Assembly: GCA_947372355.1 (NCBI GenBank)
Contig: CANBTI010000005.1
Span: forward strand, 103-64,102
Direction: 5' to 3'
Length of the DNA: 64,000 nucleotides
From: Bdellovibrionales bacterium
GTDB taxonomy: Bacteria > Bdellovibrionota > UBA1018 > CAIMNF01
A program made the translations under genes and the position numbers. Within the stretch, counting starts at the first letter, position 1, and each line of letters begins with the position of its first letter. This document shows positions 24,664 to 63,583 of the stretch, piece after piece. Below the pieces are notes generated by a model that saw nothing but the letters and a program-made list of their open reading frames with translations, did not search any database and was not told the origin of the DNA.

Positions 24664-24712
24664 AAAGTCCTCAATTCGAAGAATGATTTGCAACTATCGC
24701 GCCATCAAAAAC

Positions 24713-24727
24713 TGGCTCAATAGTTGC
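24713..24727 (+). promoter_or_regulatory. Candidate sigma-54 (-24/-12) promoter upstream of CBS gene (1 mismatch)
   Basis: TGGCTC-aatag-TTGC; the -12 element lies 26 nt upstream of ATG 24753. A second 1-mismatch match in the opposite direction (TGGCGC-gatag-TTGC, rc of 24690-24704) faces the secreted-protein gene. Confidence 0.3.
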
Positions 24728-30222: not shown

Positions 30223-31659
30223 TCAAGATTCATCAGTTGTTTCCAATTGATTTTCTTCACTTTCGTCTGCAGAAGACAATCCGTATTCTTGTTCTTTACG
30301 ATAAAGAGTTCGACGATTAATGCCAAGAATTTGAGAAGCTTTATCTTTTCTTCCGCCAGTTTTTTCAAGAATCAAACGAATATATCTTTCTTCTAATTGA
30401 TTAATTGAAGGAAAATCAATGGTAGATGTAGAAAAGAACTTATCAGCACTTTGTTCCTCAACAGATGGTAAATCCACCTCATCTACTAAATTTGAAGTGC
30501 ATAAAACTACAGCGCGTTCCACAACATTTTCTAGTTCACGAACATTACCATCCCAACGCATACTCATTAATTTTGAAATTACTCTTTTGGTAAAACCTTT
30601 AACATTAATATTATTTGCAGCAGCGTGCTTTCTAAGGAAATGCTCGGCTAGAAGAGGGATGTCATCCACTCTTTGTCTTAGTGGTGGAATGACAATTGGA
30701 ATTACACTCAGTCGATAAAATAAATCATCTCTGAAAAGACCCTCTTTCATTGCTGATTTTAAATCCTTATGTGTAGCAGAAATAATTCTAACATCGATAT
30801 CTCGAGCAATATTTTCACCTACCGCACGTACCTTTTTTTCTTGAATCACTCTTAATAGTTTAGCCTGAAGTGATACATCCATATCTCCAATTTCATCTAA
30901 AAATATAGTTCCGCCGTTTGCTTCCTCAAATAAGCCCCTTTTTCTTTGAGAAGCTCCAGTAAAAGAACCTTTCGCATGACCAAAGAGCTCAGATTCTAAG
31001 AGATTTTCAGGAATCGCGGTACAGTTGATTGCTACAAAAGGTTTGTTTGCTCTTGGTCCGCCGGCATGAATTGCTTGTGCAACCATTTCTTTTCCAGTAC
31101 CACTCTCACCCGTAACTAAAACATTGGATGTAACCTGTGAAACGCGATTCACTAAATCAAAAACAGATTTAATCGCTGCACTTTTTCCAATCATGCTTCC
31201 TAACGACCAATTACTTTTTAATTCTTGTCGAAGCGCTGTATTATCGCGTTGAAGCTGACGATACTCAATTGCTCTTTCAACATTGACGAGCATTTCAGTA
31301 AGTTTAAAAGGTTTTACAATGTAATGGAAAGCTCCTTTATTCATTGCTTCAACTGCAGTTTCAATTGATCCAAATGCAGTGATTAAAATTACTGGAATTT
31401 CTGGTCGAAGAAGTTTTAACTTTTCAGTTAACTCTAAACCGCTCATTTGTGGCATTTTAATATCTGAAATAATTAAATCAATATTGCCTTCAGTTTTATT
31501 TGAAGCATGAATCCCATCACTTGAAAAAGATTGTAGTGCATCATTTGCAGATGAAAAACAAATCACCTCATAACCGTCACCGGTTAGATAATCATCAAGT
31601 AGGGCTCTCATTTCTTTGTCATCATCAATCACTGCAATTTTAGCTTTAGAGATTTTCAT
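30223..31659 (-). CDS. Sigma-54-dependent response regulator (NtrC family: REC + AAA+ + HTH)
   Basis: REC (AVIDDDKEMR...ISDIKMPQMSG), Walker A GESGTGKE, sigma-54 contact loop ESELFGHAKGSFTGA, C-terminal Fis-type HTH. Confidence 0.85.
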   Translation of the reverse strand: MKISKAKIAVIDDDKEMRALLDDYLTGDGYEVICFSSANDALQSFSSDGIHASNKTEGNIDLIISDIKMPQMSGLELTEKLKLLRPEIPVILITAFGSIETAVEAMNKGAFHYIVKPFKLTEMLVNVERAIEYRQLQRDNTALRQELKSNWSLGSMIGKSAAIKSVFDLVNRVSQVTSNVLVTGESGTGKEMVAQAIHAGGPRANKPFVAINCTAIPENLLESELFGHAKGSFTGASQRKRGLFEEANGGTIFLDEIGDMDVSLQAKLLRVIQEKKVRAVGENIARDIDVRIISATHKDLKSAMKEGLFRDDLFYRLSVIPIVIPPLRQRVDDIPLLAEHFLRKHAAANNINVKGFTKRVISKLMSMRWDGNVRELENVVERAVVLCTSNLVDEVDLPSVEEQSADKFFSTSTIDFPSINQLEERYIRLILEKTGGRKDKASQILGINRRTLYRKEQEYGLSSADESEENQLETTDES

Positions 31660-33289: not shown

Positions 33290-33304
33290 GCAAGAAAGGG
33301 GCCA
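33290..33304 (-). promoter_or_regulatory. Sigma-54 -24/-12 promoter upstream of Hsp20-like gene
   Basis: Minus-strand TGGCCC-ctttc-TTGC (rc of GCAAgaaagGGGCCA); -12 element 30 nt upstream of ATG 33260; RBS aggagat. Confidence 0.5.
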
Positions 33305-34686: not shown

Positions 34687-34701
34687 GCAAGCACAATGCC
34701 A
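34687..34701 (-). promoter_or_regulatory. Sigma-54 -24/-12 promoter upstream of REC-REC-Hpt operon
   Basis: Minus-strand TGGCAT-tgtgc-TTGC (rc of GCAAgcacaATGCCA), 38 nt upstream of ATG 34649; strong RBS aaagggg. Confidence 0.55.
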
Positions 34702-36507: not shown

Positions 36508-36522
36508 TGGTACACAACTTGC
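36508..36522 (+). promoter_or_regulatory. Sigma-54 -24/-12 promoter upstream of REC-HK pair
   Basis: TGGTAC-acaac-TTGC with exact spacing; -12 element 40 nt upstream of ATG 36561; RBS tggggg. Confidence 0.5.
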
Positions 36523-36560: not shown

Positions 36561-36935
36561 ATGAGTAATCAGGGCATTTTAATCATTGAGGATGAAGATT
36601 GAATCAGAGAAGGACTAAGTCTTTCCTTGGAACTAGAAGGCTATACTACCTACACTGCTTCAAATGGTCAGGAGGGATTAGACATTTTGTCTCAGATCTC
36701 ATCTCCGAGTCTCATTCTTTTGGATTTAATGATGCCCGTGATGAATGGGTGGGAATTTGTTGAATCCATTAAAAAAATCAAAAAACTATCCAAAATTCCT
36801 ATTGTAATCATATCTGCATTTTACGATCAATCGAATAATATTCCTGTCCAGGGTCATTTGAAAAAACCAATTGCACTAGCCAATTTATATAAGACCATAA
36901 AAGATTTGGAAGTAACAAATGAGCAAAATGCTTAA
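36561..36935 (+). pseudogene. Receiver-domain gene interrupted by in-frame TGA at codon 14 (36600-36602)
   Basis: atg agt aat cag ggc att tta atc att gag gat gaa gat TGA atc aga gaa... = MSNQGILIIEDED*IREGLSLSLELEGY..., same frame as ORF 36627..36935; close paralog of intact REC at 39988..40356 (IIDDDETVRNTL). Confidence 0.6.
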
Positions 36936-41876: not shown

Positions 41877-41891
41877 GCAACCTATATGCCA
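41877..41891 (-). promoter_or_regulatory. Sigma-54 -24/-12 promoter upstream of small-protein/PRTase-hydrolase/REC operon
   Basis: Minus-strand TGGCAT-atagg-TTGC (rc of GCAAcctatATGCCA). Confidence 0.55.
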
Positions 41892-42645: not shown

Positions 42646-42660
42646 GCAATCACTATGCCA
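42646..42660 (-). promoter_or_regulatory. Sigma-54 -24/-12 promoter upstream of paralog A
   Basis: Minus-strand TGGCAT-agtga-TTGC (rc of GCAAtcactATGCCA), 44 nt upstream of ATG 42602. Confidence 0.55.
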
Positions 42661-43856: not shown

Positions 43857-43871
43857 GCAATGAATATGCCA
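43857..43871 (-). promoter_or_regulatory. Sigma-54 -24/-12 promoter upstream of paralog B
   Basis: Minus-strand TGGCAT-attca-TTGC (rc of GCAAtgaatATGCCA), 80 nt upstream of ATG 43777. Confidence 0.55.
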
Positions 43872-46454: not shown

Positions 46455-47336
46455 ATGATTACTCGTAGCTCATTTCAACAATTTAATTTTAATTTTCTAG
46501 AGATTGAATCCGAGGATGATTCCGGCTCACTCCTTCGCTCACTTCCGGATCAAGGATTGGCGATTGTGGGCACTCGATATCCTCAACAGAAATCCTTTGA
46601 ATTACTTGAAAATACGATCAAAGATCTTGCCGGTTCTAATTTAGTTATTGTTTCTGGATTTGCTAGAGGTGTTGATTCTCGTGCGCATGAACTCGCGATT
46701 GAACATGGATTAAAAACAATTGCCATCTTAGGCTGTGGTTTGAATATCGACTATCCGAGAGAAAATCGGGCCTTAAGAAAAAAGATTCTAGATCATGGAG
46801 GAATGATCATCTCCCCTTTTGAGCGGGATGAACCCGCATTACCAAGAAATTTTTTAAATCGGAATCAACTCATCGCCTATTTCTCGAAAGCGGTTTGGGT
46901 AGTAGAAGCGGCGGCCATCTCTGGAACGCTCAATACCGCAAAACATGCTTCCGAACTGAATCGTGATTTATATGCAACTCCCTGTTTTCCAAATGATCCG
47001 TTTTTTGAGGGAAATCAAAAACTGCTTTCTCAACAAAATTCTGAAAAATATCCCGTTGCTGATCTATTTTATGGCGTTAATTCATTCGGTAAAACTTGGA
47101 AAAACATCAGCATGGTGAATACGATTCATAAAACTACCAAAAGAAAAAATAGGAGCAAAATTCAAAATTGGATTTTAAATCTACAATTTGAACAAGGCGA
47201 ATGCAGAGTTCAAAGTTTGATGAATTTTGCTATATCAAAAGGAATCACTGCTGGGCAGTTTTATCAGGAATATGAAATTGAGCTCAATTCAGGGAAAATT
47301 ACTGAAAACCTGCTAGGGATAGTAGATCTAAAGTAA
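46455..47336 (+). CDS. dprA: DNA-processing protein DprA (Smf)
   Basis: LAIVGTRYPQQKS...VIVSGFARGVDSRAHELAI...TIAILGCGLNIDYPREN...RNQLIAYFSKAVWVVEAAAISGTLNTAKHASELNRDLYATP Rossmann-like DprA core. Confidence 0.7.
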   Translation: MITRSSFQQFNFNFLEIESEDDSGSLLRSLPDQGLAIVGTRYPQQKSFELLENTIKDLAGSNLVIVSGFARGVDSRAHELAIEHGLKTIAILGCGLNIDYPRENRALRKKILDHGGMIISPFERDEPALPRNFLNRNQLIAYFSKAVWVVEAAAISGTLNTAKHASELNRDLYATPCFPNDPFFEGNQKLLSQQNSEKYPVADLFYGVNSFGKTWKNISMVNTIHKTTKRKNRSKIQNWILNLQFEQGECRVQSLMNFAISKGITAGQFYQEYEIELNSGKITENLLGIVDLK

Positions 47337-48480
47337 TGGGGCCCTTTACCCATTGATTCATCAATTGCTCTACAGTTCTCTCCAACTCTCCAATATTTCC
47401 CCGCCACTCTTGATTCATAAACCAAGTTTCAACTAAAGGATCAATCTGGACTGGTGGTACTCCACGTTTTCTACAAGCCTTATCAAAAAAATAGGGCAGT
47501 AAATCAGTTTGAATATCTTTTTTTCGTTCCCGGAGCGGCTTTAATATAATTTTATCTAAAGTGAGCTTTGCATAGAGTTCAACATGAAAAGTTCCATCTT
47601 TCACTTTTTGAGAAAGATCTTTTGAACTGGTAGCAATGATTCTAAAATCGACAGGAAATTTTTTTGCACCACGAACCCGAGTGAAAAAATCATTTTCAAG
47701 TGCTGAAAAAAGGGCATTTTGCGCTTCAACACCAAGGGCATCCACTTCATCTAATAATATCGTGCCCCCTAAACCTAACTCAAAAGATCCTGGTTTAGAA
47801 AAAAAGCTCATTGGCATCGCACCTTTTTCTAGCCCAAACAACTCTCCTACTTGAAAAACATTTGGTATGGCGTCGCAATGGACTTGAATAAATGGATTCC
47901 TCGCCCGATCAGATTTACGATGAATTTCATAAGCAATACTTCTTTTGCCTGAGCCGACTTCACCAAACATAAATACATGAGAGTTAGTAGCCGAAATCCT
48001 TTCAGTTTGCTCGCGTAATTGAATGGTACTTTGCTCAGTACCAAATAATGGAACCGGAACAGGTCCCACTCCCTGTGCATTCATCATTTCAAGAGCAGGT
48101 TCTCTTTTTTTACGTTTACGGGTTTGAATCGCTTTTTTCAAAATGCGTGAAAGATCATCTTGATCAAAAGGTTTTAAGATAAAGTCAAAGGCTCCACTTT
48201 TCAGTGCCGTCACCGCGGCCTCAATAGTACCAAATGCCGTGATTAAAATAACGGGTAAATCAGGCGAGTAATCCTTACAGTATTTTAAAACATCTAATCC
48301 TGTATGCTCAGGCATGGAGAGATCAGTAATCACCACACTGACATCTTCAGTGTTCAATGTTTCCAAAGCATTCTTAAAGCCATCGAAACTAAATACCTCA
48401 TAACCCTCTCGGGTGAGAAGGGCATCTAAGATTTTTCTAATATTCGGTTCGTCGTCTATGACGATGATTTTATCACGCAT
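47299..48480 (-). CDS. NtrC-family REC-AAA+ regulator lacking an intact GAFTGA loop and lacking the C-terminal HTH
   Basis: REC (IIVIDDEPNIR...ITDLSMPEHTG), AAA+ Walker A GEVGSGKRS, but sigma-54 contact loop reads VGELFGLEKGAMPMSFF (GAFTGA->GAMPMS) and protein ends right after AAA+ domain (393 aa). Confidence 0.75.
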   Translation of the reverse strand: MRDKIIVIDDEPNIRKILDALLTREGYEVFSFDGFKNALETLNTEDVSVVITDLSMPEHTGLDVLKYCKDYSPDLPVILITAFGTIEAAVTALKSGAFDFILKPFDQDDLSRILKKAIQTRKRKKREPALEMMNAQGVGPVPVPLFGTEQSTIQLREQTERISATNSHVFMFGEVGSGKRSIAYEIHRKSDRARNPFIQVHCDAIPNVFQVGELFGLEKGAMPMSFFSKPGSFELGLGGTILLDEVDALGVEAQNALFSALENDFFTRVRGAKKFPVDFRIIATSSKDLSQKVKDGTFHVELYAKLTLDKIILKPLRERKKDIQTDLLPYFFDKACRKRGVPPVQIDPLVETWFMNQEWRGNIGELERTVEQLMNQWVKGPITLDLLSLAGFQ

Positions 48481-50429
48481 AACTTAATTTTTACGCTAGT
48501 ACCCTCTCCCTCAGTGGATTCTAAGGATATTTCTCCCTGACTAAACTTTACCAGTCTTTCACAAATCGATAAACCTAAACCAGTGCCTGTTTCAAATGTA
48601 GTAAAAAAAGGCTGAAATACCTTCTTTTTAACATCTTCGGTCATGCCCACACCATTATCTTTAATGTAAAACCCAGAGTCTTCTAACCCTACTTCAATCA
48701 ACTTGGCCTGAGCTTTTAATGCATTTTGAATCAAATTCATTAGGATTTGCTGTATGTGATCGGCAACACCCAAAACCATAATGGGTTTTAAGCTGTGAGC
48801 TTCAAATTTAATCTCTGCTTGCTTACCATAAAATGTAGAAAGATTTTGAATGGAACGTTCAAGACATTCACCGAGGTTGAGTTCTTCCAACTGATCACCG
48901 GGCGCATTCGCGAATTCAAGAAACTGATTCACCAAGCGATTCAATCTTTGAACTTCATCTTGAATTACTTTTACCCAAGGATCAGAACTGGATGCAATGA
49001 GGTTGGTTGCCCCTTGAATAGCCCCTAGAGGATTGCGAACTTCATGTGCCAATCCTGCAGCCATTTCACCTAATAAAATCAGCCGATCCCGTTCACGGGC
49101 ATAATCAATTTGAGAAATCTTCACCGAGGTTTTTTCAACTTCCTGGAGCGCTTTAAATATTTTGGAATATAAACTATAGTCCTCGTGCCAATCATCAATA
49201 GAAACAGCAGCAGAAAGCATCACAAACATAATCGGAATAGGATGTTTGAGATCTGAAGAGTAAATAGGAAAAATCACATCTACTTCCATCAAATCTAAAT
49301 AGTTGAGAATCCCTTCAAGATTTTTTTGTAACTCACTCGTCACTACCTGATCTTTTTCCATCTGGATGAGCTCTCGATGAATGATCGGAATGAGTGAAGA
49401 ATTAGAGTTTCGATATAAATATTTCTCAACTGCTTCAGGAAGCTTCGTTGTTCTTTCTAATTCTAATACTTTTGTTTTGGAATTTGGAATCCAAATTAAA
49501 AATGATTTTTGAATCAACTCTTCCAGTTCATTTTTACTCGTGATGAAAGGAAGAGAGGTTAAAAATTTATTGAGTTGAAGTTCACCCAATTGGTTCTTAC
49601 CCACTAATAACTTTCTACCAAGAAAACGAAAAAATGAAATGAGCGGATTCCATAAAATCAACACCGCAAAAGTAAGTAAAAAGGAATTGAGAAAAAAGAG
49701 CGGAAAACTTTCACTCATGTATTGATAAAGAAGAGCGAAAAACCCGGTAATAACCAGGGAAAGAATCACGGTTGCGAAAAAACGGGTGGTGAGAGCCTGT
49801 ATACTCAAAATTTTCTGAGGCGATACCAATTGACTAATAAAGATTAAATAAATGGTGAGTAAAAGATTACCCAATGCTGGAATCGTGAAACCCAATTGAG
49901 GGATATGATCAAATGAACAGGTGATTAAACTCACTACTAACCCAAAATATAGCCCAATTCTTTTTGTGGGTGAAAAAAAGTCTACGCTCACAGGAACGCC
50001 TAAAAATAAATCTTTGGCCATCACGTACATAAATTCAAAAACAACAAAGACCGGCCAAAAGGAAACAATGTTCCAAAATACATCACCACTTCCGAGTGAA
50101 AAAGAAATCATCACACTTAAAATCAATGCACCAAAAACACTGATCCAGCGGAGCGACTTACTCACCCCATCCTCACGGGAAAGAATTTTTGAAAGGATGG
50201 TTACCCCCACCGGCACTAGCCAAACGTGAAAAATCCAATGAATATCTTTGGATAGCCTTCCAACCAACGTGGCGTAAGAAACAAAACTAAGTGCCCAGAT
50301 GGAAATGAATAAACAAAGTACGGTGAAGAGGATTGCTAGTTTTTGTTTCCAGTTTCTATAAAGGGTCCAAACGCCGATGGATAAACTGGCTAGCCCTAAA
50401 ATGAGCGATGTTTGCTTTAGAAGATTCAT
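48456..50429 (-). CDS. Membrane sensor histidine kinase with large N-terminal multi-pass TM sensor region
   Basis: About 9 predicted TM helices in first 300 aa; H-box MAAGLAHEVRNPLGAIQG; HATPase_c (GLGLSICERLVKFSQGEISLES); 25-nt overlap with downstream regulator. Confidence 0.8.
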   Translation of the reverse strand: MNLLKQTSLILGLASLSIGVWTLYRNWKQKLAILFTVLCLFISIWALSFVSYATLVGRLSKDIHWIFHVWLVPVGVTILSKILSREDGVSKSLRWISVFGALILSVMISFSLGSGDVFWNIVSFWPVFVVFEFMYVMAKDLFLGVPVSVDFFSPTKRIGLYFGLVVSLITCSFDHIPQLGFTIPALGNLLLTIYLIFISQLVSPQKILSIQALTTRFFATVILSLVITGFFALLYQYMSESFPLFFLNSFLLTFAVLILWNPLISFFRFLGRKLLVGKNQLGELQLNKFLTSLPFITSKNELEELIQKSFLIWIPNSKTKVLELERTTKLPEAVEKYLYRNSNSSLIPIIHRELIQMEKDQVVTSELQKNLEGILNYLDLMEVDVIFPIYSSDLKHPIPIMFVMLSAAVSIDDWHEDYSLYSKIFKALQEVEKTSVKISQIDYARERDRLILLGEMAAGLAHEVRNPLGAIQGATNLIASSSDPWVKVIQDEVQRLNRLVNQFLEFANAPGDQLEELNLGECLERSIQNLSTFYGKQAEIKFEAHSLKPIMVLGVADHIQQILMNLIQNALKAQAKLIEVGLEDSGFYIKDNGVGMTEDVKKKVFQPFFTTFETGTGLGLSICERLVKFSQGEISLESTEGEGTSVKIKLCVIKSSS

Positions 50430-52721: not shown

Positions 52722-53719
52722 TGCAAGTTTTTACCCTCATTGCTGATTTAGAATCATCTGAACGAGCGGACAAATACCTTCACTCCTTATTTCAACAAAC
52801 AGAGGACCTCACCCACCTCTCCCGCTCACAAATTCAAAAACTACTAGAAAACGGCTCTATTTTAGTCAACAGCAAATCAATTGAAGGGAAATTTAAAATC
52901 CCATTGGGAGCTGAAATTACGGTAACGATTGCAGATCCCACCCCCCTTGAGGCACTTCCTGAAAATATTCCCATTCACATTTTATTTGAAGATGAAAACC
53001 TGATAGTGGTCAATAAACAACCCAATCTCACCGTTCATCCCTGCGATTCTCAAGCAAGTGGAACGCTGGTGAATGCATTATTATTTCATGTAAAAAACTT
53101 AAGTGGCATTGGTGGAAAGCTACGCCCAGGAATTGTTCACCGTATTGATAAAGATACGAGTGGAGCTCTCGTGATCACCAAAGACGATCTGACCCACCAA
53201 GGTTTATCAAAACTATTCTCCACCCATACGATCTCTCGTAAATATTGGGCCTTGGTTTACGGAGCCCCCAAGTGGGAAAATCAAACAGTGAAAACAACTC
53301 TGGGTCGGAGTCCGAGTGATCGAAAAAAAATGGCGGTAAATGTGGAGGGTGGTCGTGAAGCGATTTCCCATTTTCGACTCTTAGAAGAGTTTTTAATCCC
53401 TGGTAAAAATGCATATGCATCTCTTATTGAAGCAACCCTAGAAACGGGTCGCACGCATCAGGTTAGAGTTCATTTAAATCATCTTGGTCATTCACTTTTG
53501 GGTGATCCAATTTATGGCACGCCTTCTGATTCTCAGGCAAAGTGGAAATCGCTCCCCACACTAGTTCAAGCTGCTGTTCGAAAATTACCCGGACAAGCAC
53601 TTCATGCTAGAGAGCTAGGCTTTGTTCACCCCATCACTAAAAAAGAACTCCATTTTGAAGCAGCACCCTTTGAAGATTTTCAAAATTTAATCGATATTTT
53701 ACGTCAATTGAACAAATAA
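52721..53719 (+). CDS. rluD: Ribosomal large-subunit pseudouridine synthase (RluD/RluC, RluA family)
   Basis: S4-like N-domain, catalytic HRIDKDTSGALVI, RluA-family core. Confidence 0.8.
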   Translation: MQVFTLIADLESSERADKYLHSLFQQTEDLTHLSRSQIQKLLENGSILVNSKSIEGKFKIPLGAEITVTIADPTPLEALPENIPIHILFEDENLIVVNKQPNLTVHPCDSQASGTLVNALLFHVKNLSGIGGKLRPGIVHRIDKDTSGALVITKDDLTHQGLSKLFSTHTISRKYWALVYGAPKWENQTVKTTLGRSPSDRKKMAVNVEGGREAISHFRLLEEFLIPGKNAYASLIEATLETGRTHQVRVHLNHLGHSLLGDPIYGTPSDSQAKWKSLPTLVQAAVRKLPGQALHARELGFVHPITKKELHFEAAPFEDFQNLIDILRQLNK

Positions 53720-53723
53720 AAAA

Positions 53724-53750
53724 GGCCCGCTTGGTATTACCAGGCGAGCC
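53724..53750. terminator. Candidate bidirectional terminator between convergent rluD and lipoprotein gene
   Basis: ggcccgcttgg / ccaggcgagcc 11-bp stem (one mismatch, one G-U) flanked by A-run upstream and T-rich downstream. Confidence 0.4.
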
Positions 53751-53775: not shown

Positions 53776-55260
53776 TTATTCATCATTGCCACAATGTCCT
53801 GGCCCAACTTCACCATTATTATAATGGTCTAAAGTATCATGCCAGTTTGAAACATTATCTTTTTCGTTATCATCTAAGTTTTGCCAGTCATTTTGATTGT
53901 GATTGGAGAGGAATTGGTCACATTGGCTAATGATCGATGATACAGCTGATGTATCAGAGCCATGAGCTTTACTTAATTTAGCTGCAAGTAATTGTGCATA
54001 AAGTTTAGTAATTCCATTTGAAGACGATCCATAAACTTTTTGTCCAAGTACATCGATTGCTGTAGAAGTGGAAACAATGTTAAAAGACTTTGTTCCACCC
54101 ACTGTTCCTAGACATTGAACTAAGTTAGGAGTAACCGCAGCCATGTGATTTTTCCAATATCCAATTGTGTAAGTACAATTGTTTCCGCCAGTAGGGTAAG
54201 GAGTTGCTGTTGGAGTCGCAGTCGGTGCTGGAGTCGGAGTCGCAGTCGGTGCTGGAGTCGGAGTCGCAGTCGGAGTCGCAGTCGGAGTCGCAGTCGGTGC
54301 TGGAGTCGGAGTCGGTGCTCCGTATGGCAAGCAACCTTTGAATATATGATGATTATATTGACCTGCACCGTATGCAGATTGAGCAATAAAATGTCCATTC
54401 AATTGTCCTGATGGGAAAGTAACATCAGCAAATGGAGCCAAAATTGAACCTTCAAAAGAAATGTTTCCGATCCAGATTGATTGAGCGGTTGGAAAGTTAA
54501 ACACTACATGACTTTGATCTGTACCGTGCAATTCCATTGCAAAACTTGCAATCGTAATTGCAGAGCCTTTTACGTTGATCAATGCTGTTGAATCTGCAGG
54601 AATGGTTAAACTTAAAAATTGTGAACGTTCGAGATCATCCGTAGTCATAGTAAAAACGTTGATCACTGGATCAGTACCCACTAAAATAGTGTCGTGTCTT
54701 GAACTGATGTTTTCTAATGTCACCGTTGAATTAGAAACCAACCCACCTAAAGTAGTGGACATCGATTTTAAGTAGTCACCAGAATTTGCAAAACTAAGAG
54801 GGCTTACATGTTGAGTAAATCCACCAAAAGCAGACGTTGCGAATTTAGTTAAAGACCCACCATAAATAACCTTACCTTTATTTACAGCACCACTTTGAAA
54901 ATTTAAATCTCCATTAACGATGAGGTCTACTCGATTAGCATCTTCATCAAGAATTTCACCTACACTATAGTTTTGAATAGTTGCATTTCCGCCAACCGCT
55001 AATCTTCCTTCTGTATCCGAGCTTGGCGCTTCAAAATTACCTAGTGTAAAAACGTTGAAATCCCATGCATCTGATAAAGCTGCTTCATAACAAACACCGT
55101 AATTTGGCGTAATATGGGATGCCGATTGACTTAAATCAATGGAGTAAGATGGGTCAGTACCAGGAAGTACACATCCTGAAACAATGAACATCGTTCCTAA
55201 AATTAAAGAAACATTTTTAAAATTTTTATTAAACGAATTTTGTTTTCTCATAGATCTCAT
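53776..55260 (-). CDS. Lipoprotein with N-terminal choice-of-anchor-A-like domain, Pro/Thr/Ala repeat linker and Cys-containing C-terminal domain
   Basis: Lipobox IVSGC; DAWDFNVFTLGNFEAPSSDTEGRLAVGGNATIQNYSVG resembles choice-of-anchor A family; linker APTPTPAPTATPTATPTATPTPAPTATPTPAPTATPTATP. Confidence 0.6.
   Translation of the reverse strand: MRSMRKQNSFNKNFKNVSLILGTMFIVSGCVLPGTDPSYSIDLSQSASHITPNYGVCYEAALSDAWDFNVFTLGNFEAPSSDTEGRLAVGGNATIQNYSVGEILDEDANRVDLIVNGDLNFQSGAVNKGKVIYGGSLTKFATSAFGGFTQHVSPLSFANSGDYLKSMSTTLGGLVSNSTVTLENISSRHDTILVGTDPVINVFTMTTDDLERSQFLSLTIPADSTALINVKGSAITIASFAMELHGTDQSHVVFNFPTAQSIWIGNISFEGSILAPFADVTFPSGQLNGHFIAQSAYGAGQYNHHIFKGCLPYGAPTPTPAPTATPTATPTATPTPAPTATPTPAPTATPTATPYPTGGNNCTYTIGYWKNHMAAVTPNLVQCLGTVGGTKSFNIVSTSTAIDVLGQKVYGSSSNGITKLYAQLLAAKLSKAHGSDTSAVSSIISQCDQFLSNHNQNDWQNLDDNEKDNVSNWHDTLDHYNNGEVGPGHCGNDE
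54205..54320. repeat. Tandem 12-nt DNA repeats (gtcggagtcgca / gtcggtgctgga variants) encoding the PT(A) linker
   Basis: Near-perfect tandem units visible directly; spurious ORFs 54120..54398(-), 54125..54334(-), 54145..54411(+) arise from this repeat. Confidence 0.8.
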
Positions 55261-55272
55261 ACCTTAAATAAA

Positions 55273-55287
55273 GCAATTGCGGTGCCA
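55273..55287 (-). promoter_or_regulatory. Perfect-consensus sigma-54 -24/-12 promoter for the lipoprotein gene
   Basis: Minus-strand TGGCAC-cgcaa-TTGC (rc of GCAAttgcgGTGCCA). The -12 GC is only 13-14 nt from ATG 55260, which implies a leaderless or very short-leader mRNA, or the start at the in-frame ATG 55251. Confidence 0.65.
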
Positions 55288-55348
55288 AGCAATCTCCATC
55301 AATTCATGTTTATATTCATGAGTGTATTGAGCGACACTACTCAAACTA

Positions 55349-55386
55349 TTGACAGGATGATACTTTAGTTGACACATATAGTCAAC
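55349..55386 (+). promoter_or_regulatory. Direct TTGACA repeats and inverted repeat GTTGAC-N7-GTCAAC upstream of EPS-type operon (candidate operator/promoter)
   Basis: TTGACA at 55349-54 and 55369-74; palindrome agttgac-acatata-gtcaac at 55367-55386, 50-90 nt upstream of ATG 55438. Confidence 0.3.
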
Positions 55387-55437
55387 AACAAATGTGTAAG
55401 AATTCTTTAGCCATGCATCAATGATTTTAATTTTACT

Positions 55438-56466
55438 TTGCATGGCGCACCCAACCTCAGGTTTAATAGAAAAGTGATGAATTTGTTCATTGGATTATTT
55501 TTAGCTATTTTTATGGCATTTTTTACGCCCATTTCTGCTCAAGCAAAACCAACATGGTCTGCTTATGTGGCAGATTGGGGAAATATTTCAGATTCAACTG
55601 TTTTAATTGAAAATATACAAAACGTGGATACAGTTTGGCTGAGAATGTTTAGTGTTCTGCCGAACGGACACCTAGACACCAAGTGGAATCCTGCCGGCCC
55701 AGTTACACCAGTTTTACAAAAGTTGATGAAAATAAAGAATGGACCTCACTTTGGACCCATCATTCACAACGCCGGAGCGAATGGATTTTCACAAACATTC
55801 GGACGGCTCATTTTAAAATCTGCTGATCTATGGCTTCCTGAAATTTTAACACTCAAAAAAAAATGGAAATTTAATTCTCTTCAATTAGACATTGAAGAGA
55901 TGGACCCCGAAGATGCAATTCTATTCGAAGATACCGTCAAAAAAGTATCAATTTTTGCAAAAAAAAATAATCTCGATTTTTCGATCGCACTTCATGCACA
56001 AACAGAAAATATTCCTAAGAATGTTGGCGCTCGATTCCAGCGCTGGTCTGAATTAAAACAAATTCCAGTAAAAAAAATCGTCATGGGACTCGATTATTCA
56101 TGGGCCGGTGGAGAGCCGGGTCCGATTGCTCCAACCGAATGGCTTCAAAAAATTGTCGCTCATGCACTATTATTTTTTAAGCCTCAGGATTTGGTGGTTA
56201 CTTTACCATTGTATGGTTATCATTGGAGAAAAGGTAAACTCGGCGAATCTGCATTACCCGAAGAGTTTATCAGCAAAGTGACCCAAGATAAAAAATGGAA
56301 ACGAGATGTCATTCAAAATGAATCAGTTTATCGCAAAGAAGAAGAAGTTATCAGTTTTGAAAATACTGAATCCGTTCTTCAGAAAAAAACTGCCATCGAG
56401 AAATTGGGAATACACTCTTTTGCAATCTGGAGAGCCGGCGGCGAACTATCCAATCTCTATCGTTAA
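55438..56466 (+). CDS. Secreted GH18-like (chitinase-like TIM-barrel) glycoside hydrolase
   Basis: Signal peptide; GH18 landmarks in order: WSAYVADWG, IIHNAGANGFS (SxGG), NSLQLDIEEM (DxE catalytic), VMGLDYSWAG (MxYD), LPLYGYHW, FAIWRAGGE. Confidence 0.55.
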   Translation: MHGAPNLRFNRKVMNLFIGLFLAIFMAFFTPISAQAKPTWSAYVADWGNISDSTVLIENIQNVDTVWLRMFSVLPNGHLDTKWNPAGPVTPVLQKLMKIKNGPHFGPIIHNAGANGFSQTFGRLILKSADLWLPEILTLKKKWKFNSLQLDIEEMDPEDAILFEDTVKKVSIFAKKNNLDFSIALHAQTENIPKNVGARFQRWSELKQIPVKKIVMGLDYSWAGGEPGPIAPTEWLQKIVAHALLFFKPQDLVVTLPLYGYHWRKGKLGESALPEEFISKVTQDKKWKRDVIQNESVYRKEEEVISFENTESVLQKKTAIEKLGIHSFAIWRAGGELSNLYR

Positions 56467-57997: not shown

Positions 57998-59283
57998 TCG
58001 TTAGAATGTTCATTGCGCTTTTTTTACTATTTGGGACCAGTATATTTTTTGATCCAGCAAAGATTCCACGTTTATCCACTACGGGATTCCTTGGATTCAT
58101 TAACTTTGGAATTATTTTTTATATTTTAATTTTAGCACTCAGGCATTTTGTCATGCTTTTTTTCTCAGCGCTTGAAACTGCACGCAGAGAAGGATTGCCA
58201 CAACCAAATTTCTTTCCTCCGATTTCGATTATCGTTCCTGCCTATAATGAGGGTGTTGTGATTCAAAGAACGATTGAACAACTGGCGCACATCAAATACC
58301 CAGTTTTTGAAATAATAGTTGTGGATGATGGAAGTAAAGATAACACTTACGATTTAGCTGTGGAAACTGCCAAATCGCATTCGCAAACGAGGGTATTAAC
58401 CAAGCCAAACAGCGGCAAAGCCAATTCTTTAAATTTTGGAATTAAAGAAGCTCGTTATGATTATGTGTTTTGTATGGATGCAGATTCCATCGTGCATGTA
58501 AACGCGCTCAGCATGGGTGCAAGACACCTCGTCGATCCATATGTTGTTGCAGTTGCAGGCTCAGTACTAGTACTCAATACCAACTCCATTGTTGGAAAAT
58601 TCCAAACACTTGAATATTTAACCGGGTTAAATTTTTATAAAGCAGCACAAAGTTTTTTTGGTCTAGTGATGATTATTCCAGGTCCTTCAGGATTATTTAG
58701 GAAATCTGCTTTGAACGCAATCGGCGGTTATGAAACAGATACTTTTGCAGAAGATTGCGATGTTACCCTTCGATTACTCATGAATAATGGGCGCGTGGTA
58801 TTTGAACCCGACATGGAAGTGAGAACGGAGGTTCCTGCTGATTTTTTACAATTAATTAAGCAACGATACCGTTGGAATCGCGGAATTCTTCAAGCAACTC
58901 GAAAACACATTGGCAAAATTTTTACATTTTATCAAGATCCAGCTTCAGCTGTAGTGGTTTCCTATATGTTTGTTGAATCAGTAATGTTACCCATCACTAA
59001 TATTTTCATCGGCGTATTATCTTTGTTTTACGTTTTTTACGCCATGGATTTTACGGTTGCTTCTTTGTGGCTGGTTCAACTCACGTTGATGGATCTTGCT
59101 GTAGTCGTGATGACCCTTTGGGATCAACGCTGGAGTTTAAATCTTTTATTTTATGCATTTTTCAATCGTTTTACTTATGCCTTCTTTCAAGACATTGTAA
59201 AAGTATTCTCCATGCTAGAGGAGTTTGCCGGAATTAGAATGAACTGGGGAAAATTAGATAGAACTGGGGTTTCTGGTTCATGA
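57994..59283 (+). CDS. Family-2 processive beta-glycosyltransferase (PgaC/IcaA/NodC/BcsA-like synthase)
   Basis: 2 N-terminal + 3-4 C-terminal TM helices; VVDDGSKDNT, FCMDADSIV (DxD), QRYRWNRG (QxxRW at 58861-58875). Confidence 0.85.
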   Translation: MIVRMFIALFLLFGTSIFFDPAKIPRLSTTGFLGFINFGIIFYILILALRHFVMLFFSALETARREGLPQPNFFPPISIIVPAYNEGVVIQRTIEQLAHIKYPVFEIIVVDDGSKDNTYDLAVETAKSHSQTRVLTKPNSGKANSLNFGIKEARYDYVFCMDADSIVHVNALSMGARHLVDPYVVAVAGSVLVLNTNSIVGKFQTLEYLTGLNFYKAAQSFFGLVMIIPGPSGLFRKSALNAIGGYETDTFAEDCDVTLRLLMNNGRVVFEPDMEVRTEVPADFLQLIKQRYRWNRGILQATRKHIGKIFTFYQDPASAVVVSYMFVESVMLPITNIFIGVLSLFYVFYAMDFTVASLWLVQLTLMDLAVVVMTLWDQRWSLNLLFYAFFNRFTYAFFQDIVKVFSMLEEFAGIRMNWGKLDRTGVSGS

Positions 59284-62210
59284 CACTTTTTGATGCAATC
59301 TTAACCTTGATTACGATTTTATCCGCATTCACTGTTATCCATTTCTGCTATAAACAACGAAAGCTAAAATACGCTAAACTAGGAATGGCAATCGGAATCC
59401 TTTCAATCCTTTATTGTGCTAATCCAATTTTGAGTTGGTATAAGATGAAGAATCTTAAATACTCCGGTCTGAATGAATCGGAGACTCAATCCGCATCGGG
59501 CGTTCCAATGGCACACGGGATTCCCACTCGTTGGACAGGTGAAGCCCTTTTGTTTGATCTCACCGTTGCTGGTAAATCGATTCAAAATTATATTGATGAA
59601 GCAGGACAAAAAAATAAACTTTTAATCTTTAGTGCAGAGAATGGAATTTTACCTGAATACCAAGCTTGGGCAGAAAAGGAATTTGGTAAAATTTTACCTG
59701 TAGATTCAGAAATAAATAATGTATGTTTTCGTCGTCAACCTGAAGTTCCTTATGCAAGTGGTATTTGTAGAGAGTTTAAAGCACGTTATTCACTTGTTCC
59801 TTCAGCTTCTGCATATGCAATCAGCTCAGATGGGAAAAATTCCTTTATTCACTTAAAACAGTCTGGTTTATCTCGATATGGAATTACTACTATTTCATTA
59901 GATGGTAGTCCTGAAACTTTGTGTTTATCTGAACTATCTAAAGGATCTGCCTGTGCTGGAGTAGAAATTTTGCCAGATGGTGCACTTTCAGTTTTATTTT
60001 TAGAAGCAACCGATCCAATCCAAAAACATGTAATGGAAGAATTTAAAGTTCCAGATATGAGTTTGGGAGAACTTCATTTGCAAAACTCCGATCATCAATT
60101 TAACTGTGGGGGGTTTGATTTAAAGAACAACCTCACCACCATTACCCATACTTCTTTAAAAACCAGACTCAGTCAAATCAACAGTGAAAATGAACTCACT
60201 GAAGTGATTCAAGATCTGAACTCTCACCTGCCTTGTCCTGGCCCGATCTCTCTTGAAGTTCCTGTTTTTCTAAATAGGAAACTAGAGCCAACCACTCGTT
60301 CATTTCTCACTCAGGTTCTTGAAAAACCATTCTGGGTTACTCCTCCAGCGAGTTATTTTGGAAGAAAACAAAAAATCGAAAAAACCGAACTTTTTCAAGA
60401 TGGATATAAATTGGTAGTTAAATCTCCAATCGAAATTAAAAACTTTGCAATTACCATCATGAGTCCCGTTACTTTTGATGAGGAGATCCTTCATTTCATT
60501 AAGCCCTCAAACATCAATGATTTTAAAATTTACAGAATCGGCGCCACTACCTTTAGGCTAGTTTCAAACCTAGTGAAGGATCTTGATTTTTCAGTAGATA
60601 CTGCTCCACTGCTTCGAGGAACTAGTGCCAGTAACGCATCTACCGTTTCAGACTGGACTGGATTTAATCGATCAATGTTGTTTGCTCTTTCTTTGGCTCT
60701 CATCATCAGTTGGCTTCAAGGATTTGCAACAGCACGCACAGAAAAACAGGTCTTTTTCCCCATGACCTTCTTTTATATTTGCTTCATTGGTTTACTTTGG
60801 TTTTTCTTAAGCAGTCGCGCTTCTTACTTAGGAGATCAAGGGGTTGCAAACTTAACTGAAGAGAGATTATCTGATCCACAATATATTACCGTGAGAGATT
60901 GGAATGAAAATTGGTGGAAAAAAGATCTTGAGGATCAAGAAGTGCATCAAGCAAGCAGTCAATCTAATAATGCCTCATGGAGAGCGGAAGTTGAACTTGC
61001 CAGAAAAGCTTCAAATTCAAATATTCCAACTGCAGAAGCAATTAAGTTTCTTGATTTAAATCCAAGTGCTAATCCAAAATATTTATCACAAGTGAGAATT
61101 CAAGTATGGGATGCACCTGAAGTTCGCAATTGGTACTTTAGAAAATCACCTTCGTACGCAAGCGCTCTTACGGCTTGGCAATCCTTACTTCAATTTCCAG
61201 AAATCAAGGGCGAAATTGATTCAAGCGCAACTCTAGATTTTAATCACATCAATCATAATACAATCATTGTAGTTCTTGATTATGCACTTCTTTCTGAATC
61301 AAATCAAAAAGCACTCAATGATTGGATCAGTAATGGAGGCACAGCCGTATTCCATACAGCGCTCGACTCTGCACTGAGTAAGGATCCTGAATTATTTCAA
61401 AAGAAAAATTACTCAAAAATTCCAGATGCGTTTGGAGTACCTCTAGAAATTAATCGAACTCACTTCATACAAAGTAAAACCGGAGATTGGTTCAATATTA
61501 AAAAAATTGGTAGTGGAAGAAAAGTGTTTGCAGGGGTTGTTCCATACCAAACAAACTCACTTCAATTGTTAAAGGAACTATTACACGGATTAAATCGATC
61601 AAGCGTGGTCGTGAATTCATTTCATGATGATGGCTGCCACACCGCTATTTTTGCAGAACCTTATGGTGCAAGTTCTGAAACTTTGCGAAGCTTTTCGAAT
61701 CACTTAAAAGCTACTGGTGTAAATATTCAATGGGCTATTTCTGCGGAAAGTTTTGCTAGAATGGCCCCAGAGTGGAAAAATACATTTACCCCTCAAAACA
61801 TAGCCTTTTTAGATGATGGAAAGCCGATCATGCGCGCATTCTCCACAGAACTTTATCAACGGTTCTTTAAAGTAACCAGTAAACCAGTATTCATAACGAT
61901 TAAGGATGAAAAACCAAACTTGATTGGACCCGAGGCGTTGTTAGTGAGAGCGGAAGTTCTTGAATCGGTTGATCTTTGGGAGTCTAGCTGCATTACAGGA
62001 GTTTCTCGTCCTAGACTCCTCACTTCAAACGAAATCAAAAACTCAATTGGAATTTGGCAAAACAAGATTTCCTCTTTAAAAACATTCCATTTTCAAACTG
62101 GAATTCAACTTTTAGATAATGCACCACTTTTATCATCTCCCGGAAAACGTAAGTGGATTAGTAATGAATCGAACCCCATGAAGTACGCCCCCGAAAGGAC
62201 CTCACCATGA
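59280..62210 (+). CDS. 976-aa multi-pass membrane protein of EPS-type locus (unknown; C-terminal region with possible class-I glutamine-amidotransferase-like fold)
   Basis: TM helices at N-terminus and around aa 470-520; ATGA-coupled to GT2 gene; C-term IIVVLDYALLSESNQKALNDWISNGGTAVF. Confidence 0.55.
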   Translation: MTLFDAILTLITILSAFTVIHFCYKQRKLKYAKLGMAIGILSILYCANPILSWYKMKNLKYSGLNESETQSASGVPMAHGIPTRWTGEALLFDLTVAGKSIQNYIDEAGQKNKLLIFSAENGILPEYQAWAEKEFGKILPVDSEINNVCFRRQPEVPYASGICREFKARYSLVPSASAYAISSDGKNSFIHLKQSGLSRYGITTISLDGSPETLCLSELSKGSACAGVEILPDGALSVLFLEATDPIQKHVMEEFKVPDMSLGELHLQNSDHQFNCGGFDLKNNLTTITHTSLKTRLSQINSENELTEVIQDLNSHLPCPGPISLEVPVFLNRKLEPTTRSFLTQVLEKPFWVTPPASYFGRKQKIEKTELFQDGYKLVVKSPIEIKNFAITIMSPVTFDEEILHFIKPSNINDFKIYRIGATTFRLVSNLVKDLDFSVDTAPLLRGTSASNASTVSDWTGFNRSMLFALSLALIISWLQGFATARTEKQVFFPMTFFYICFIGLLWFFLSSRASYLGDQGVANLTEERLSDPQYITVRDWNENWWKKDLEDQEVHQASSQSNNASWRAEVELARKASNSNIPTAEAIKFLDLNPSANPKYLSQVRIQVWDAPEVRNWYFRKSPSYASALTAWQSLLQFPEIKGEIDSSATLDFNHINHNTIIVVLDYALLSESNQKALNDWISNGGTAVFHTALDSALSKDPELFQKKNYSKIPDAFGVPLEINRTHFIQSKTGDWFNIKKIGSGRKVFAGVVPYQTNSLQLLKELLHGLNRSSVVVNSFHDDGCHTAIFAEPYGASSETLRSFSNHLKATGVNIQWAISAESFARMAPEWKNTFTPQNIAFLDDGKPIMRAFSTELYQRFFKVTSKPVFITIKDEKPNLIGPEALLVRAEVLESVDLWESSCITGVSRPRLLTSNEIKNSIGIWQNKISSLKTFHFQTGIQLLDNAPLLSSPGKRKWISNESNPMKYAPERTSP

Positions 62211-63583
62211 GTAACCCATTTCACTGGAATCATCGAAGTTTAGATCAGGTGTGTGAAAAACTACAAGATTTTAGCACTTTGCTTTTGAGTGCAAAAGATG
62301 CTGCCGATCTCGATACACTTTGGAAATTAGCAAAAGATCGCTTATATCCCAATATTTTAAATGCTTCGCTTCAAACATATATTTTTGATGAGCGAAATAT
62401 GGATATTCAGGAATTAAAATCGATTAACGTGAAAACTGCAGATGTAATCTTATTTAGAAAGAAAAGTGCTGGTGGCTCTTGGGATCAAACCATCTTAAAA
62501 GATCTAGCAGAACTCCCAGGTGCGGTGCTGGCATTTTCAGAAACCACACCCCTAAATTGGAATACTCTATTTGATATCGTTTTAGAACTGAAAGATCCCA
62601 TTTGTAGAATACATAGAAAAAATGATCCTAAGCATGAGGAAGTTGCTTTTACGTTTACTGAAAAGAAGGCTACCACCACTACTCAATCGTTAAGTGAAAA
62701 GGCCAAAGGAATTGTTTACTTTCTAGATGTAGATCCAACTCTTCAAAAAAGTATCACTCGTGGAATTGCTTTCGCAAATTTAGAAGTGCATTCCATTGAT
62801 CAGGATCAATCCATTCCTAGCTTTTCCCAAGGTGATTTTTTAATTACGGATCTAGCAGAAGATCACCCTAAACTTGTAGAATGTTTTGAACTTGCCAGAT
62901 CAAACTCCGTTCCGGTGATTGTGATCGGTAAAAAACTGAAACGAGTTGAAGATCGACTCCGGTTGTATGATTGGGGATCCACTTTTATACTACCTAAGGA
63001 TGCCTCTAACGCTGAACAAATTGCATCGATCACTTCCATTTTGAAGTTTTCTGGCCATAATCAAGTTTCATCCGTATTTGCGATGGATGAGTGGGATATT
63101 GAACTTCAACGCCTTTCTCAAAAAGTAAAAAGAGATCTCTCCTGGAACGAGAACCAAACACCAGAATTGATCAATTACTATAAAGCGTTTGTTTCTCACT
63201 TAATCAAACGCTCCCAACATTCAGGCACACCATGCGGAGTGATTAGAATCCCTCTGCCAGATCTCTCCGCAATTGCCGCTGAAAAGGCATCTTGGATTAA
63301 TTTAATGCGTAGAACACTTTTGCAAAGCCTAATCGCTACCGTAAGACAAAGAGACATTACCTTTGTATTCGAAGATCACTTGGTTATTATTTCTGGCGAT
63401 CTTTCTCCATTAGGATCTACGTACGTGGTGAATCGAATTCAAGCACAATTAAAATCTTTGGGTGAAACTCCAGCTAAAGTTGAACGACTTTCATTCATTC
63501 CAGAAAATTATCAAAGAAATGGGGAAGCTGAAGAATTATTAAAAAAAGCGGTCTCCAAATTCTTCGGGAATGAAGGTACATGA
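62207..63583 (+). CDS. Cytoplasmic protein with C-terminal degenerate GGDEF-like domain retaining an RxxD I-site (candidate c-di-GMP receptor, PelD-like logic)
   Basis: VRQRD-ITFVF-EDHLV: RxxD (63344-63355) followed 5 residues later by the position of GG(D/E)EF, which reads EDHLV; flanking segments (GVIRIPLPDLSAI..., STYVVNRIQAQL) fit GGDEF secondary-structure pattern. Confidence 0.45.
   Translation: MSNPFHWNHRSLDQVCEKLQDFSTLLLSAKDAADLDTLWKLAKDRLYPNILNASLQTYIFDERNMDIQELKSINVKTADVILFRKKSAGGSWDQTILKDLAELPGAVLAFSETTPLNWNTLFDIVLELKDPICRIHRKNDPKHEEVAFTFTEKKATTTTQSLSEKAKGIVYFLDVDPTLQKSITRGIAFANLEVHSIDQDQSIPSFSQGDFLITDLAEDHPKLVECFELARSNSVPVIVIGKKLKRVEDRLRLYDWGSTFILPKDASNAEQIASITSILKFSGHNQVSSVFAMDEWDIELQRLSQKVKRDLSWNENQTPELINYYKAFVSHLIKRSQHSGTPCGVIRIPLPDLSAIAAEKASWINLMRRTLLQSLIATVRQRDITFVFEDHLVIISGDLSPLGSTYVVNRIQAQLKSLGETPAKVERLSFIPENYQRNGEAEELLKKAVSKFFGNEGT

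Follow-up and report, generated by a model that had tools for sequence, protein, structure and literature searches.

A predicted sigma-54 promoter at the start codon of a choice-of-anchor A lipoprotein gene in an uncultured Bdellovibrionota bacterium

Can a -24/-12 element lying this close to a start codon be a working promoter and, if so, how would its mRNA be translated? The question is raised by a 64,000-nt stretch of DNA from a Bdellovibrionales bacterium (GenBank assembly GCA_947372355.1, contig CANBTI010000005.1, positions 103 to 64,102; hereafter the window), in which a gene for a choice-of-anchor A lipoprotein is preceded on the minus strand by TGGCAC-N5-TTGC, a motif of the sigma-54 type. 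A preliminary description of the window had placed this motif at 55273-55287 with no mismatch. The minus-strand sequence bears this out, and the motif is the only perfect match in the 64 kb (both strands, 128,000 positions). Its parts are as follows.

55287..55273, minus strand: predicted sigma-54 promoter core, TGGCACcgcaaTTGC; its ten bases are invariant upstream of five non-redundant relatives
55287..55282, minus strand: -24 element, TGGCAC
55281..55277, minus strand: spacer, cgcaa
55276..55273, minus strand: -12 element, TTGC

Read along the minus strand, the region runs ...gagattgcT TGGCAC cgcaa TTGC Tttatttaaggt ATG aga tct ATG aga aaa caa..., and the extended form of the promoter is cTTGGCACcgcaaTTGCTtt. 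The GG and GC doublets are exactly 10 bp apart, with zero mismatches to TGGCAC-N5-TTGC. We put at roughly 80% the probability that this is a functional sigma-54 (RpoN) promoter of the -24/-12 type, driving a single-gene unit for the lipoprotein.

The promoter core, its conservation and its gene

How much weight can a perfect match bear? Dinucleotide shuffles of the window gave an expectation of 0.14 perfect matches, with at least one in 14% of shuffles; hence, the match by itself is not significant. The per-site probability of about 1e-6 put forward in the preliminary description is accurate (0.14/128,000 = 1.1e-6), but the statistical argument built on it is insufficient when it stands alone. 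Allowing one mismatch, we found 10 matches in the window against 3.4 expected, a number reached in none of 100 shuffles. Of these 10, nine are correctly oriented towards a start codon that begins 12-80 nt downstream. These data suggest that the genome uses promoters of the TGGCAC-N5-TTGC type. The perfect copy, too, lies upstream of a gene start and is correctly oriented, with no real gene in between.

For comparison, we analyzed all close relatives of the lipoprotein that could be retrieved, 316 kb of fetched loci in total. Seven perfect matches occur in these loci, compared with 0.57 expected from base composition, and every one of them is upstream of a lipoprotein orthologue or paralogue. 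Two of the seven duplicate the window and locus L002, leaving five non-redundant copies (L009, L057a, L057b, L002 and L004), for which protein identity is 48-65%. For any one locus, the probability that a perfect match falls by chance no more than 150 nt from the start is ∼1e-4. The sites are listed below, each with its distance from TTGC to the ATG.

Window: divergent GH18; TGGCACcgcaaTTGC; 21 bases (to ATG 55251)
L009, 65% identity: same divergent GH18; TGGCACttggtTTGC; 23 bases
L057a, 62% identity: syntenic, neighbouring GT2 at least 90% identical; TGGCACtgggtTTGC; 24 bases
L057b: tandem paralogue, downstream of L057a; TGGCACtatctTTGC; 23 bases
L002 (the same as L003), 59% identity: unrelated neighbourhood of prs, pth and a lytic transglycosylase; TGGCACcccttTTGC; 25 bases
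L004, 48% identity: short contig; TGGCACttcccTTGC; about 90-110 bases
L005, 44% identity: GGGCGCagcttTTGC; 32 bases

In a gapless alignment anchored on the promoter, the ten core bases are invariant, no column of the N5 spacer is invariant, and the flanks have diverged. The site of L005 is degenerate (GGGCGC-N5-TTGC): its -24 hexamer is mismatched, yet the GG-N10-GC doublet spacing is kept. Because L002 and L057b share no synteny with the GH18 operon, the promoter travels with the gene rather than with the neighbourhood. From these alignments we conclude that the promoter is, in all likelihood, under selection and moving with its gene. Distant choice-of-anchor A homologues (L006-L056, 27-40% identity, other phyla) have no perfect motif, although weaker positioned matches were not looked for, so conservation is demonstrated for the close orthologue group only. 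Judged on sequence, the site thus has the core, the spacing, the position and the conservation expected of a sigma-54 promoter.

The gene and the end of its putative transcript are marked by the following features.

53776..55251, minus strand: choice-of-anchor A lipoprotein gene, 491 aa; TIGR04215, E=8.5e-60; Pfam pAdhesive_15 (PF20597), E=1.1e-53
55171..55182, minus strand: lipobox V-S-G-C; Cys27 is invariant in the aligned orthologues
53718..53750, minus strand: intrinsic terminator, a hairpin with a T-run 25 nt after the stop; -19.6 kcal/mol, z = -3.8

The protein combines the TIGR04215/PF20597 domain with an N-terminal lipobox cysteine, and is laid out as a signal peptide, a beta-helix adhesive domain, a Pro/Thr-rich linker and a conserved C-terminal domain. 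Since a hairpin terminator follows the gene, and since the gene converges on rluD, we take the transcription unit to be monocistronic. The L057 lipoprotein is 62% identical to the window copy, whereas the adjacent GT2 is at least 90% identical; by this comparison, the surface lipoprotein appears to be evolving fast. At L057 (1019-2900, minus strand) there are two tandem lipoprotein paralogues, each with a perfect sigma-54 core and a GTGTC-N6-GACAC palindrome, and with a terminator between them.

Leader and start codon

Sigma-54 promoters have the GC of their -12 element at -13/-12, and this geometry was used to predict where the mRNA would begin. Three positions matter here.

55260..55262, minus strand: where transcription is predicted to begin, 12 ± 1 nt beyond the C in the GC of the -12 element
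55258..55260, minus strand: upstream in-frame ATG, the start of the longest open reading frame (ORF); aligns with the orthologue Shine-Dalgarno element; candidate leaderless start
55249..55251, minus strand: ATG matching all orthologue starts (MRKQNSF...) in the alignments; start in the public gene call

From the C of the -12 GC to the A of the ATG is 13 nt for ATG 55260 and 22 nt for ATG 55251. The preliminary description gave the first of these as the annotated start, 13-14 nt from the -12 element; the distance is right, but ATG 55260 is a start only of the longest ORF, and both the gene call and orthology point to 55251. In the public metagenome-assembled genome (MAG) GCA_947379695.1, which contains the same locus (L001), the gene is called from ATG 55251 and encodes 491 aa. 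The aligned N-termini read MRKQNSF (window, from ATG 55251), MRKQNSL, MRKQKSL and MREQKSF. ATG 55251 is conserved as a start in the orthologues and ATG 55260 is not, in protein and DNA alignments alike.

What sets the window copy apart is its leader. The ATGAGA that contains ATG 55260 is aligned opposite the Shine-Dalgarno element of the orthologues, which is AGGAGA, GGGAGAGAG or GAGAGAGAGA. Pairing of the predicted leader with the anti-Shine-Dalgarno sequence is -2.7 kcal/mol in the window, compared with -5.5 to -7.4 kcal/mol in the orthologues and -5.9 to -8.4 kcal/mol at seven other sigma-54-like sites of the window. At -2.7 kcal/mol, there is no functional Shine-Dalgarno element upstream of the start, as would be expected of a leaderless message. 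Predicted orthologue leaders are 12-15 nt long, essentially a bare Shine-Dalgarno element, and the window leader would be 2-4 nt shorter. The promoter-to-start spacing itself is short in the close orthologues (23-25 nt) and at other sigma-54-like sites of the window (25-44 nt), so close spacing is shared across the family and the genome and is not unique to this locus; at the seven sites used for the pairing comparison, it is 25-43 nt. As far as the alignments tell, the window copy alone has lost its ribosome-binding site and has an AUG, in frame, where the mRNA is predicted to begin.

Because ATG 55260 aligns with the lost Shine-Dalgarno element and falls on the predicted start, the mRNA would either have a leader of ∼10 nt with a poor ribosome-binding site or be leaderless. 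The preliminary description had posed the same alternative, and it stands: orthology favours 55251, yet the Shine-Dalgarno element is gone and an in-frame ATG lies at the predicted 5' end. We lean towards translation from the orthologous ATG 55251, on a leader of ∼10 nt with a poor ribosome-binding site.

A truly leaderless mRNA from the same sigma-54 promoter is plausible, if not the outcome we would bet on. Transcription would then begin with the A of ATG 55260 or with the nucleotide just before it, giving a precursor that starts MRSMRKQ.... This ATG, 13 nt from the C of the -12 GC, corresponds to the predicted +1/+2; it is in frame, with no stop before 55251, and occupies the aligned position of a Shine-Dalgarno element that every close orthologue has and that is lost here (-2.7 versus -5.5 to -7.4 kcal/mol). 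The three extra residues, one of them Arg, would probably do no harm to a lipoprotein signal peptide, since they would lie in its n-region. Yet no orthologue conserves ATG 55260, whereas ATG 55251 is conserved, and leaderless initiation is sensitive to 1-2 extra 5' nucleotides, while the start is predicted only to within ±1-2 nt. A non-exhaustive literature search for the pairing of leaderless mRNAs with sigma-54 found a paper with both terms, but in separate passages (PMC7438776). Whichever ATG is used, the mature lipoprotein would be identical, because the precursors differ by Met-Arg-Ser before the signal peptide and cleavage is at Cys27.

The alignments also hint at how such a message might have arisen. 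A G-to-T change (AGGAGA to ATGAGA), together with shortening by 2-4 nt, could have converted an ancestral leader of 12-15 nt, consisting of a Shine-Dalgarno element only, into a leaderless mRNA. We offer this conversion tentatively, and consider it less likely than not. If true, the locus would provide a sigma-54-dependent, activator-gated leaderless transcript and a snapshot of the switch from Shine-Dalgarno-led to leaderless translation, with the mature protein unchanged.

At its 5' end, the coding sequence is almost invariant in DNA for ∼20 nt (ATGAGAAAACAAAATTCGTT; 55232-55251), synonymous positions included, in orthologues of 59-65% protein identity. This suggests constraint on the A-rich translation-initiation region of mRNAs with very short leaders.

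Upstream elements, activators and competing promoters

Transcription by sigma-54 RNA polymerase would call for an activator, and the DNA upstream of the core contains three conserved elements.

55322..55337, no strand: palindrome GTGTCgctcaaTACAC, one mismatch from GTGTC-N6-GACAC; candidate enhancer-binding protein site
55297..55305, minus strand: GAATTGATG, a block conserved in the alignments; about -36 to -44, with the palindrome on one side and the -24 element on the other
55346..55356, minus strand: conserved upstream element CCTGTCAATAG (alignments)

The window palindrome is centred 68.5 nt upstream of the predicted transcription start. Perfect GTGTC-N6-GACAC occurs in L009, L057a and L057b, the sole three occurrences in the 316 kb of loci, and all three are centred at -69.5. 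L002 has a degenerate copy of the palindrome, and L005 has a palindrome of 2x11 nt, GCGAAGTGTTT...AAACACTTCGC, which contains GTGT/ACAC and lies at about -74. A palindrome in fixed phase upstream of a -24/-12 core resembles an activator-binding site, and we regard it as a candidate for one. It is not enriched elsewhere in the window (two one-mismatch matches versus 0.72 expected), so no wider regulon can be claimed. The GAATTGATG block is possibly a site for a DNA-bending protein. By inspection, a 12/13 match to the IHF consensus is present in this block in L057a only, and there is none in the window; accordingly, we make no claim for IHF. The CCTGTCAATAG element takes the form (AGTAC)nGCTGTCTAA in the orthologues, at about -85 to -95, and is also found upstream of the non-syntenic L002 and of L057b.

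Activator genes are present in the genome. A canonical sigma-54 activator is encoded at 30223..31659, with a receiver, a sigma-54 AAA+ domain and HTH_8, and with the motifs GESGTGK, ELFGH and GSFTGA. The polynucleotide phosphorylase encoded in the window shares 70-78% identity with MAG proteins labelled Bdellovibrionales, Oligoflexia or Bdellovibrionota. Two cultured Bdellovibrionota have the sigma factor itself: bd0843 is rpoN in B. bacteriovorus (PMC3464611), and Bacteriovorax marinus carries an rpoN (PMC3526173). Closer to the lipoprotein gene are genes for a histidine kinase (48456-50429, minus strand) and for a 393-aa protein (47299-48480, minus strand) that combines a receiver domain with an AAA+ domain of the sigma-54 type. 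The 393-aa protein lacks an HTH_8 domain and has ELFGLEKGAMPMSFF in place of the GAFTGA loop; it is probably no classical sigma-54 activator. Its family is found at 55-89% identity in many metagenomic assemblies, and its few named members are from Bdellovibrionales or Proteobacteria MAGs. As the cognate activator of the lipoprotein promoter, the pair at 47299-50429 is unlikely, with no GAFTGA loop, no DNA-binding domain and no linkage to the orthologues elsewhere.

Another eight sites with one mismatch, of the type TGGC(A/G/T/C)(T/C)-N5-TTGC and in most cases TGGCAT-N5-TTGC, are each followed by a start codon 25-80 nt downstream.

24690-24704, minus strand: sigma-54-like site
24713-24727, plus strand: sigma-54-like site
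33290-33304, minus strand: sigma-54-like site
34687-34701, minus strand: sigma-54-like site
36508-36522, plus strand: sigma-54-like site
41877-41891, minus strand: sigma-54-like site
42646-42660, minus strand: sigma-54-like site
43857-43871, minus strand: sigma-54-like site

They fall mostly in a stretch of lower GC content (24-44 kb, 33-36% GC). Genes behind them include a transglutaminase-elicitor-like gene, a CBS-domain gene, response regulators, a phosphoribosyltransferase-domain gene and secreted hypotheticals. A position weight matrix built from these eight sites was overfitted, since spacer columns were included, and was not used. Downstream of one site is a complete 124-aa single-domain response regulator (36561-36935, plus strand) with an in-frame TGA at codon 14 (IIEDED*IREGL; 36600-36602); nonsense mutation, sequencing error and read-through are all possible explanations.

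The following sequence of events would fit the lipoprotein promoter. Sigma-54 RNA polymerase would bind TGGCAC-N5-TTGC as a closed complex, and an activator ATPase (an enhancer-binding protein), most likely bound to the conserved palindrome GTGTC-N6-(G/T)ACAC near -69, would drive melting. Transcription would run from about 55261 to the hairpin at 53750..53718. The leader would be extremely short, with AGGAGA replaced by ATGAGA in the window, and translation would start from ATG 55251 (leader of ∼10 nt) or, without a leader, from ATG 55260. The motif and its conservation, the conserved elements upstream, the loss of the Shine-Dalgarno element, the gene family and the activator genes can be read from the sequences themselves; dependence on RpoN, the point where transcription starts, the activator involved and the ATG in use are what we infer.

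Several observations weigh against a functional sigma-54 promoter at this site. Chance alone would supply 0.14 perfect motifs per window. The palindrome, at about -69, is nearer to the promoter than most characterized activator sites, and the window copy has one mismatch. The window has no rpoN, and its six-frame translation contains no RpoN-box peptide. Finally, a sigma-70-like promoter 70-100 nt upstream could add transcripts with a longer leader. That promoter, and an ORF that covers the sigma-54 core, are the remaining competitors.

55357..55385, minus strand: sigma-70-like TTGACT-17-TATCAT, 10/12 positions match; possible second promoter, not conserved
55264..55443, minus strand: ORF of 59 aa covering the promoter; called as a gene in GCA_947379695.1; judged spurious

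Could the gene be expressed mainly from the sigma-70-like promoter (55385..55357), with a leader of ∼100 nt and the sigma-54 site secondary or silent? We consider this unlikely. The match to consensus is good (10/12 positions, 17-nt spacer), but such matches are equally frequent in shuffles, with two found versus 1.8 expected. The site lies in DNA that is absent from the syntenic L009 and L057, so it could be a recent regulatory gain. The site is not conserved. The longer leader would include UAAGGU upstream of the ATGs, yet this sequence pairs weakly (-3.9 kcal/mol) and is poorly spaced, 2 nt from ATG 55260 and 11 nt from ATG 55251. Moreover, the sigma-54 core and the upstream elements are intact in the window.

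The DNA in question is an intergenic insertion of ∼60 nt (55357-55417) specific to the window and absent from L009 and L057. Within it are the inverted repeat GTTGAC-N7-GTCAAC and the sequence TGCATGGC, which repeats part of a conserved block in inverted orientation.

That the motif is a chance match within a real gene for a 59-aa protein is highly improbable. In favour of this reading, the ORF is called as a gene in GCA_947379695.1, and chance alone would supply 0.14 perfect motifs per window. Against it, the ORF matches no known family and is a singleton on clustering; its frame is broken after 14 codons in L009 and after five in L057 while the motif inside stays invariant; and the motif is kept at non-syntenic loci, where this ORF is missing. 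On its unconserved frame, singleton status and lack of a family match, we rejected the ORF as a gene. A functional sigma-54 promoter for the lipoprotein gene remains the reading that we prefer.

The neighbouring operon and comparison with known systems

Does the promoter also serve the genes on the other side? The divergent operon comprises a GH18-like gene (ATG 55477) and genes for a 525-563-aa protein, a PgaC/IcaA-like GT2 synthase, and proteins of 976 aa (59280-62210, plus strand) and 458 aa (62207-63583, plus strand); the last two have no Pfam or NCBIfam match. The preliminary description saw no sigma-54 element for this operon, and we agree: the plus strand from 54800 to 55480 contains no GG-N10-GC. 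A search of 55000-55700 against Rfam returned no RNA family.

Between the two genes, 7-40 nt upstream of the GH18 ATG, is an invariant GC-rich block of ∼35 nt (55437-55470), which reads TATTAAACCTGAGGTTGGGTGCGCCATGCAAA on the minus strand. L009 and L057 have an identical copy, though the spacer has otherwise diverged; L057b and L002 lack the block. Two palindromes, AACCTGAGGTT and TGC-N5-GCA, fall within it. By inspection, the block is not a sigma-54 site, with GG and GC wrongly spaced on both strands; it may be an operator or promoter for the polysaccharide operon. The sequence TTGCAT-18-TTTAAT, if it acts as a promoter, would put the start of that operon almost on its ATG too.

The locus appears to be variable. 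In L005 (2-4275), the 44% orthologue lies downstream of, and on the same strand as, a homologue of the 976-aa protein (27% identity over 909 aa, E=1e-85); thus, the association of the lipoprotein with this gene set recurs in a different arrangement. In L062 (4993-8990), where RluD is at least 90% identical, the lipoprotein/polysaccharide cluster is missing downstream of rluD, and in its position are a 137-aa gene and a gene for a 5066-aa Big_1/invasin-like protein. These arrangements point to a variable surface-protein locus, with L062 marking the boundary of the strain-variable surface genes.

What does the assignment add? In our literature search, we found no description of a sigma-54 regulon for the uncultured Bdellovibrionota lineage of the host. 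The assignment concerns a duplicated, fast-evolving and strain-variable adhesin-like lipoprotein beside a PgaC-like exopolysaccharide operon, and would place the lipoprotein, but not the adjoining polysaccharide genes, under sigma-54/activator control. The palindrome at -69 is a testable candidate activator site and, with the other sites in the window, could seed the description of a sigma-54 regulon in this group. With its Shine-Dalgarno element lost and an AUG predicted at the very 5' end, the lipoprotein mRNA would serve as a modest natural experiment on the minimum length of a bacterial leader. The promoter itself is an ordinary kind of element, the possible conversion from Shine-Dalgarno-led to leaderless translation is a modest curiosity, and current understanding of sigma-54 is unchanged.

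Canonical sigma-54 promoters, such as E. coli glnAp2, follow the consensus YTGGCACG-N4-TTGCW. The window promoter is like them in its full core, preceding pyrimidine, following T, orientation and conserved upstream palindrome, which could bind an activator, and in the presence of activator genes in the genome. It differs in two respects: the candidate activator site, with its centre at -69, is nearer than usual, and the start codon is 13 or 22 nt from the -12 GC, leaving little or no leader.

Leaderless mRNAs with a 5'-terminal AUG are known from lambda cI and in large numbers from Actinobacteria and Archaea. The predicted lipoprotein mRNA resembles these in having an in-frame AUG at its predicted 5' end and no usable Shine-Dalgarno element. 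It differs from those cases in its predicted 5' end, its unconserved AUG, its promoter of the sigma-54 and not the sigma-70 type, and its orthologues, which use a short leader containing a Shine-Dalgarno element.

Among mapped promoters, those of SigL (sigma-54) in C. difficile, for example TTGGCACAATTTTTGCTTT, come close (PMC7438776). The extended form TTGGCAC-N5-TTGCTTT is nearly the same, in an AT-rich genome. The organisms are unrelated, however, and the SigL targets function in amino-acid and sugar catabolism whereas the gene here encodes a surface lipoprotein; the transcription start is mapped there and predicted here (PMC7438776).

As for the protein, published members of the choice-of-anchor A family (TIGR04215 / pAdhesive_15) are described as adhesive or polysaccharide-binding proteins of the wall or matrix. 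The lipoprotein matches their domain strongly, and differs in its N-terminal lipobox anchor, its Pro/Thr linker and its uncharacterized C-terminal domain. A similar, adhesin-like role is predicted for it.

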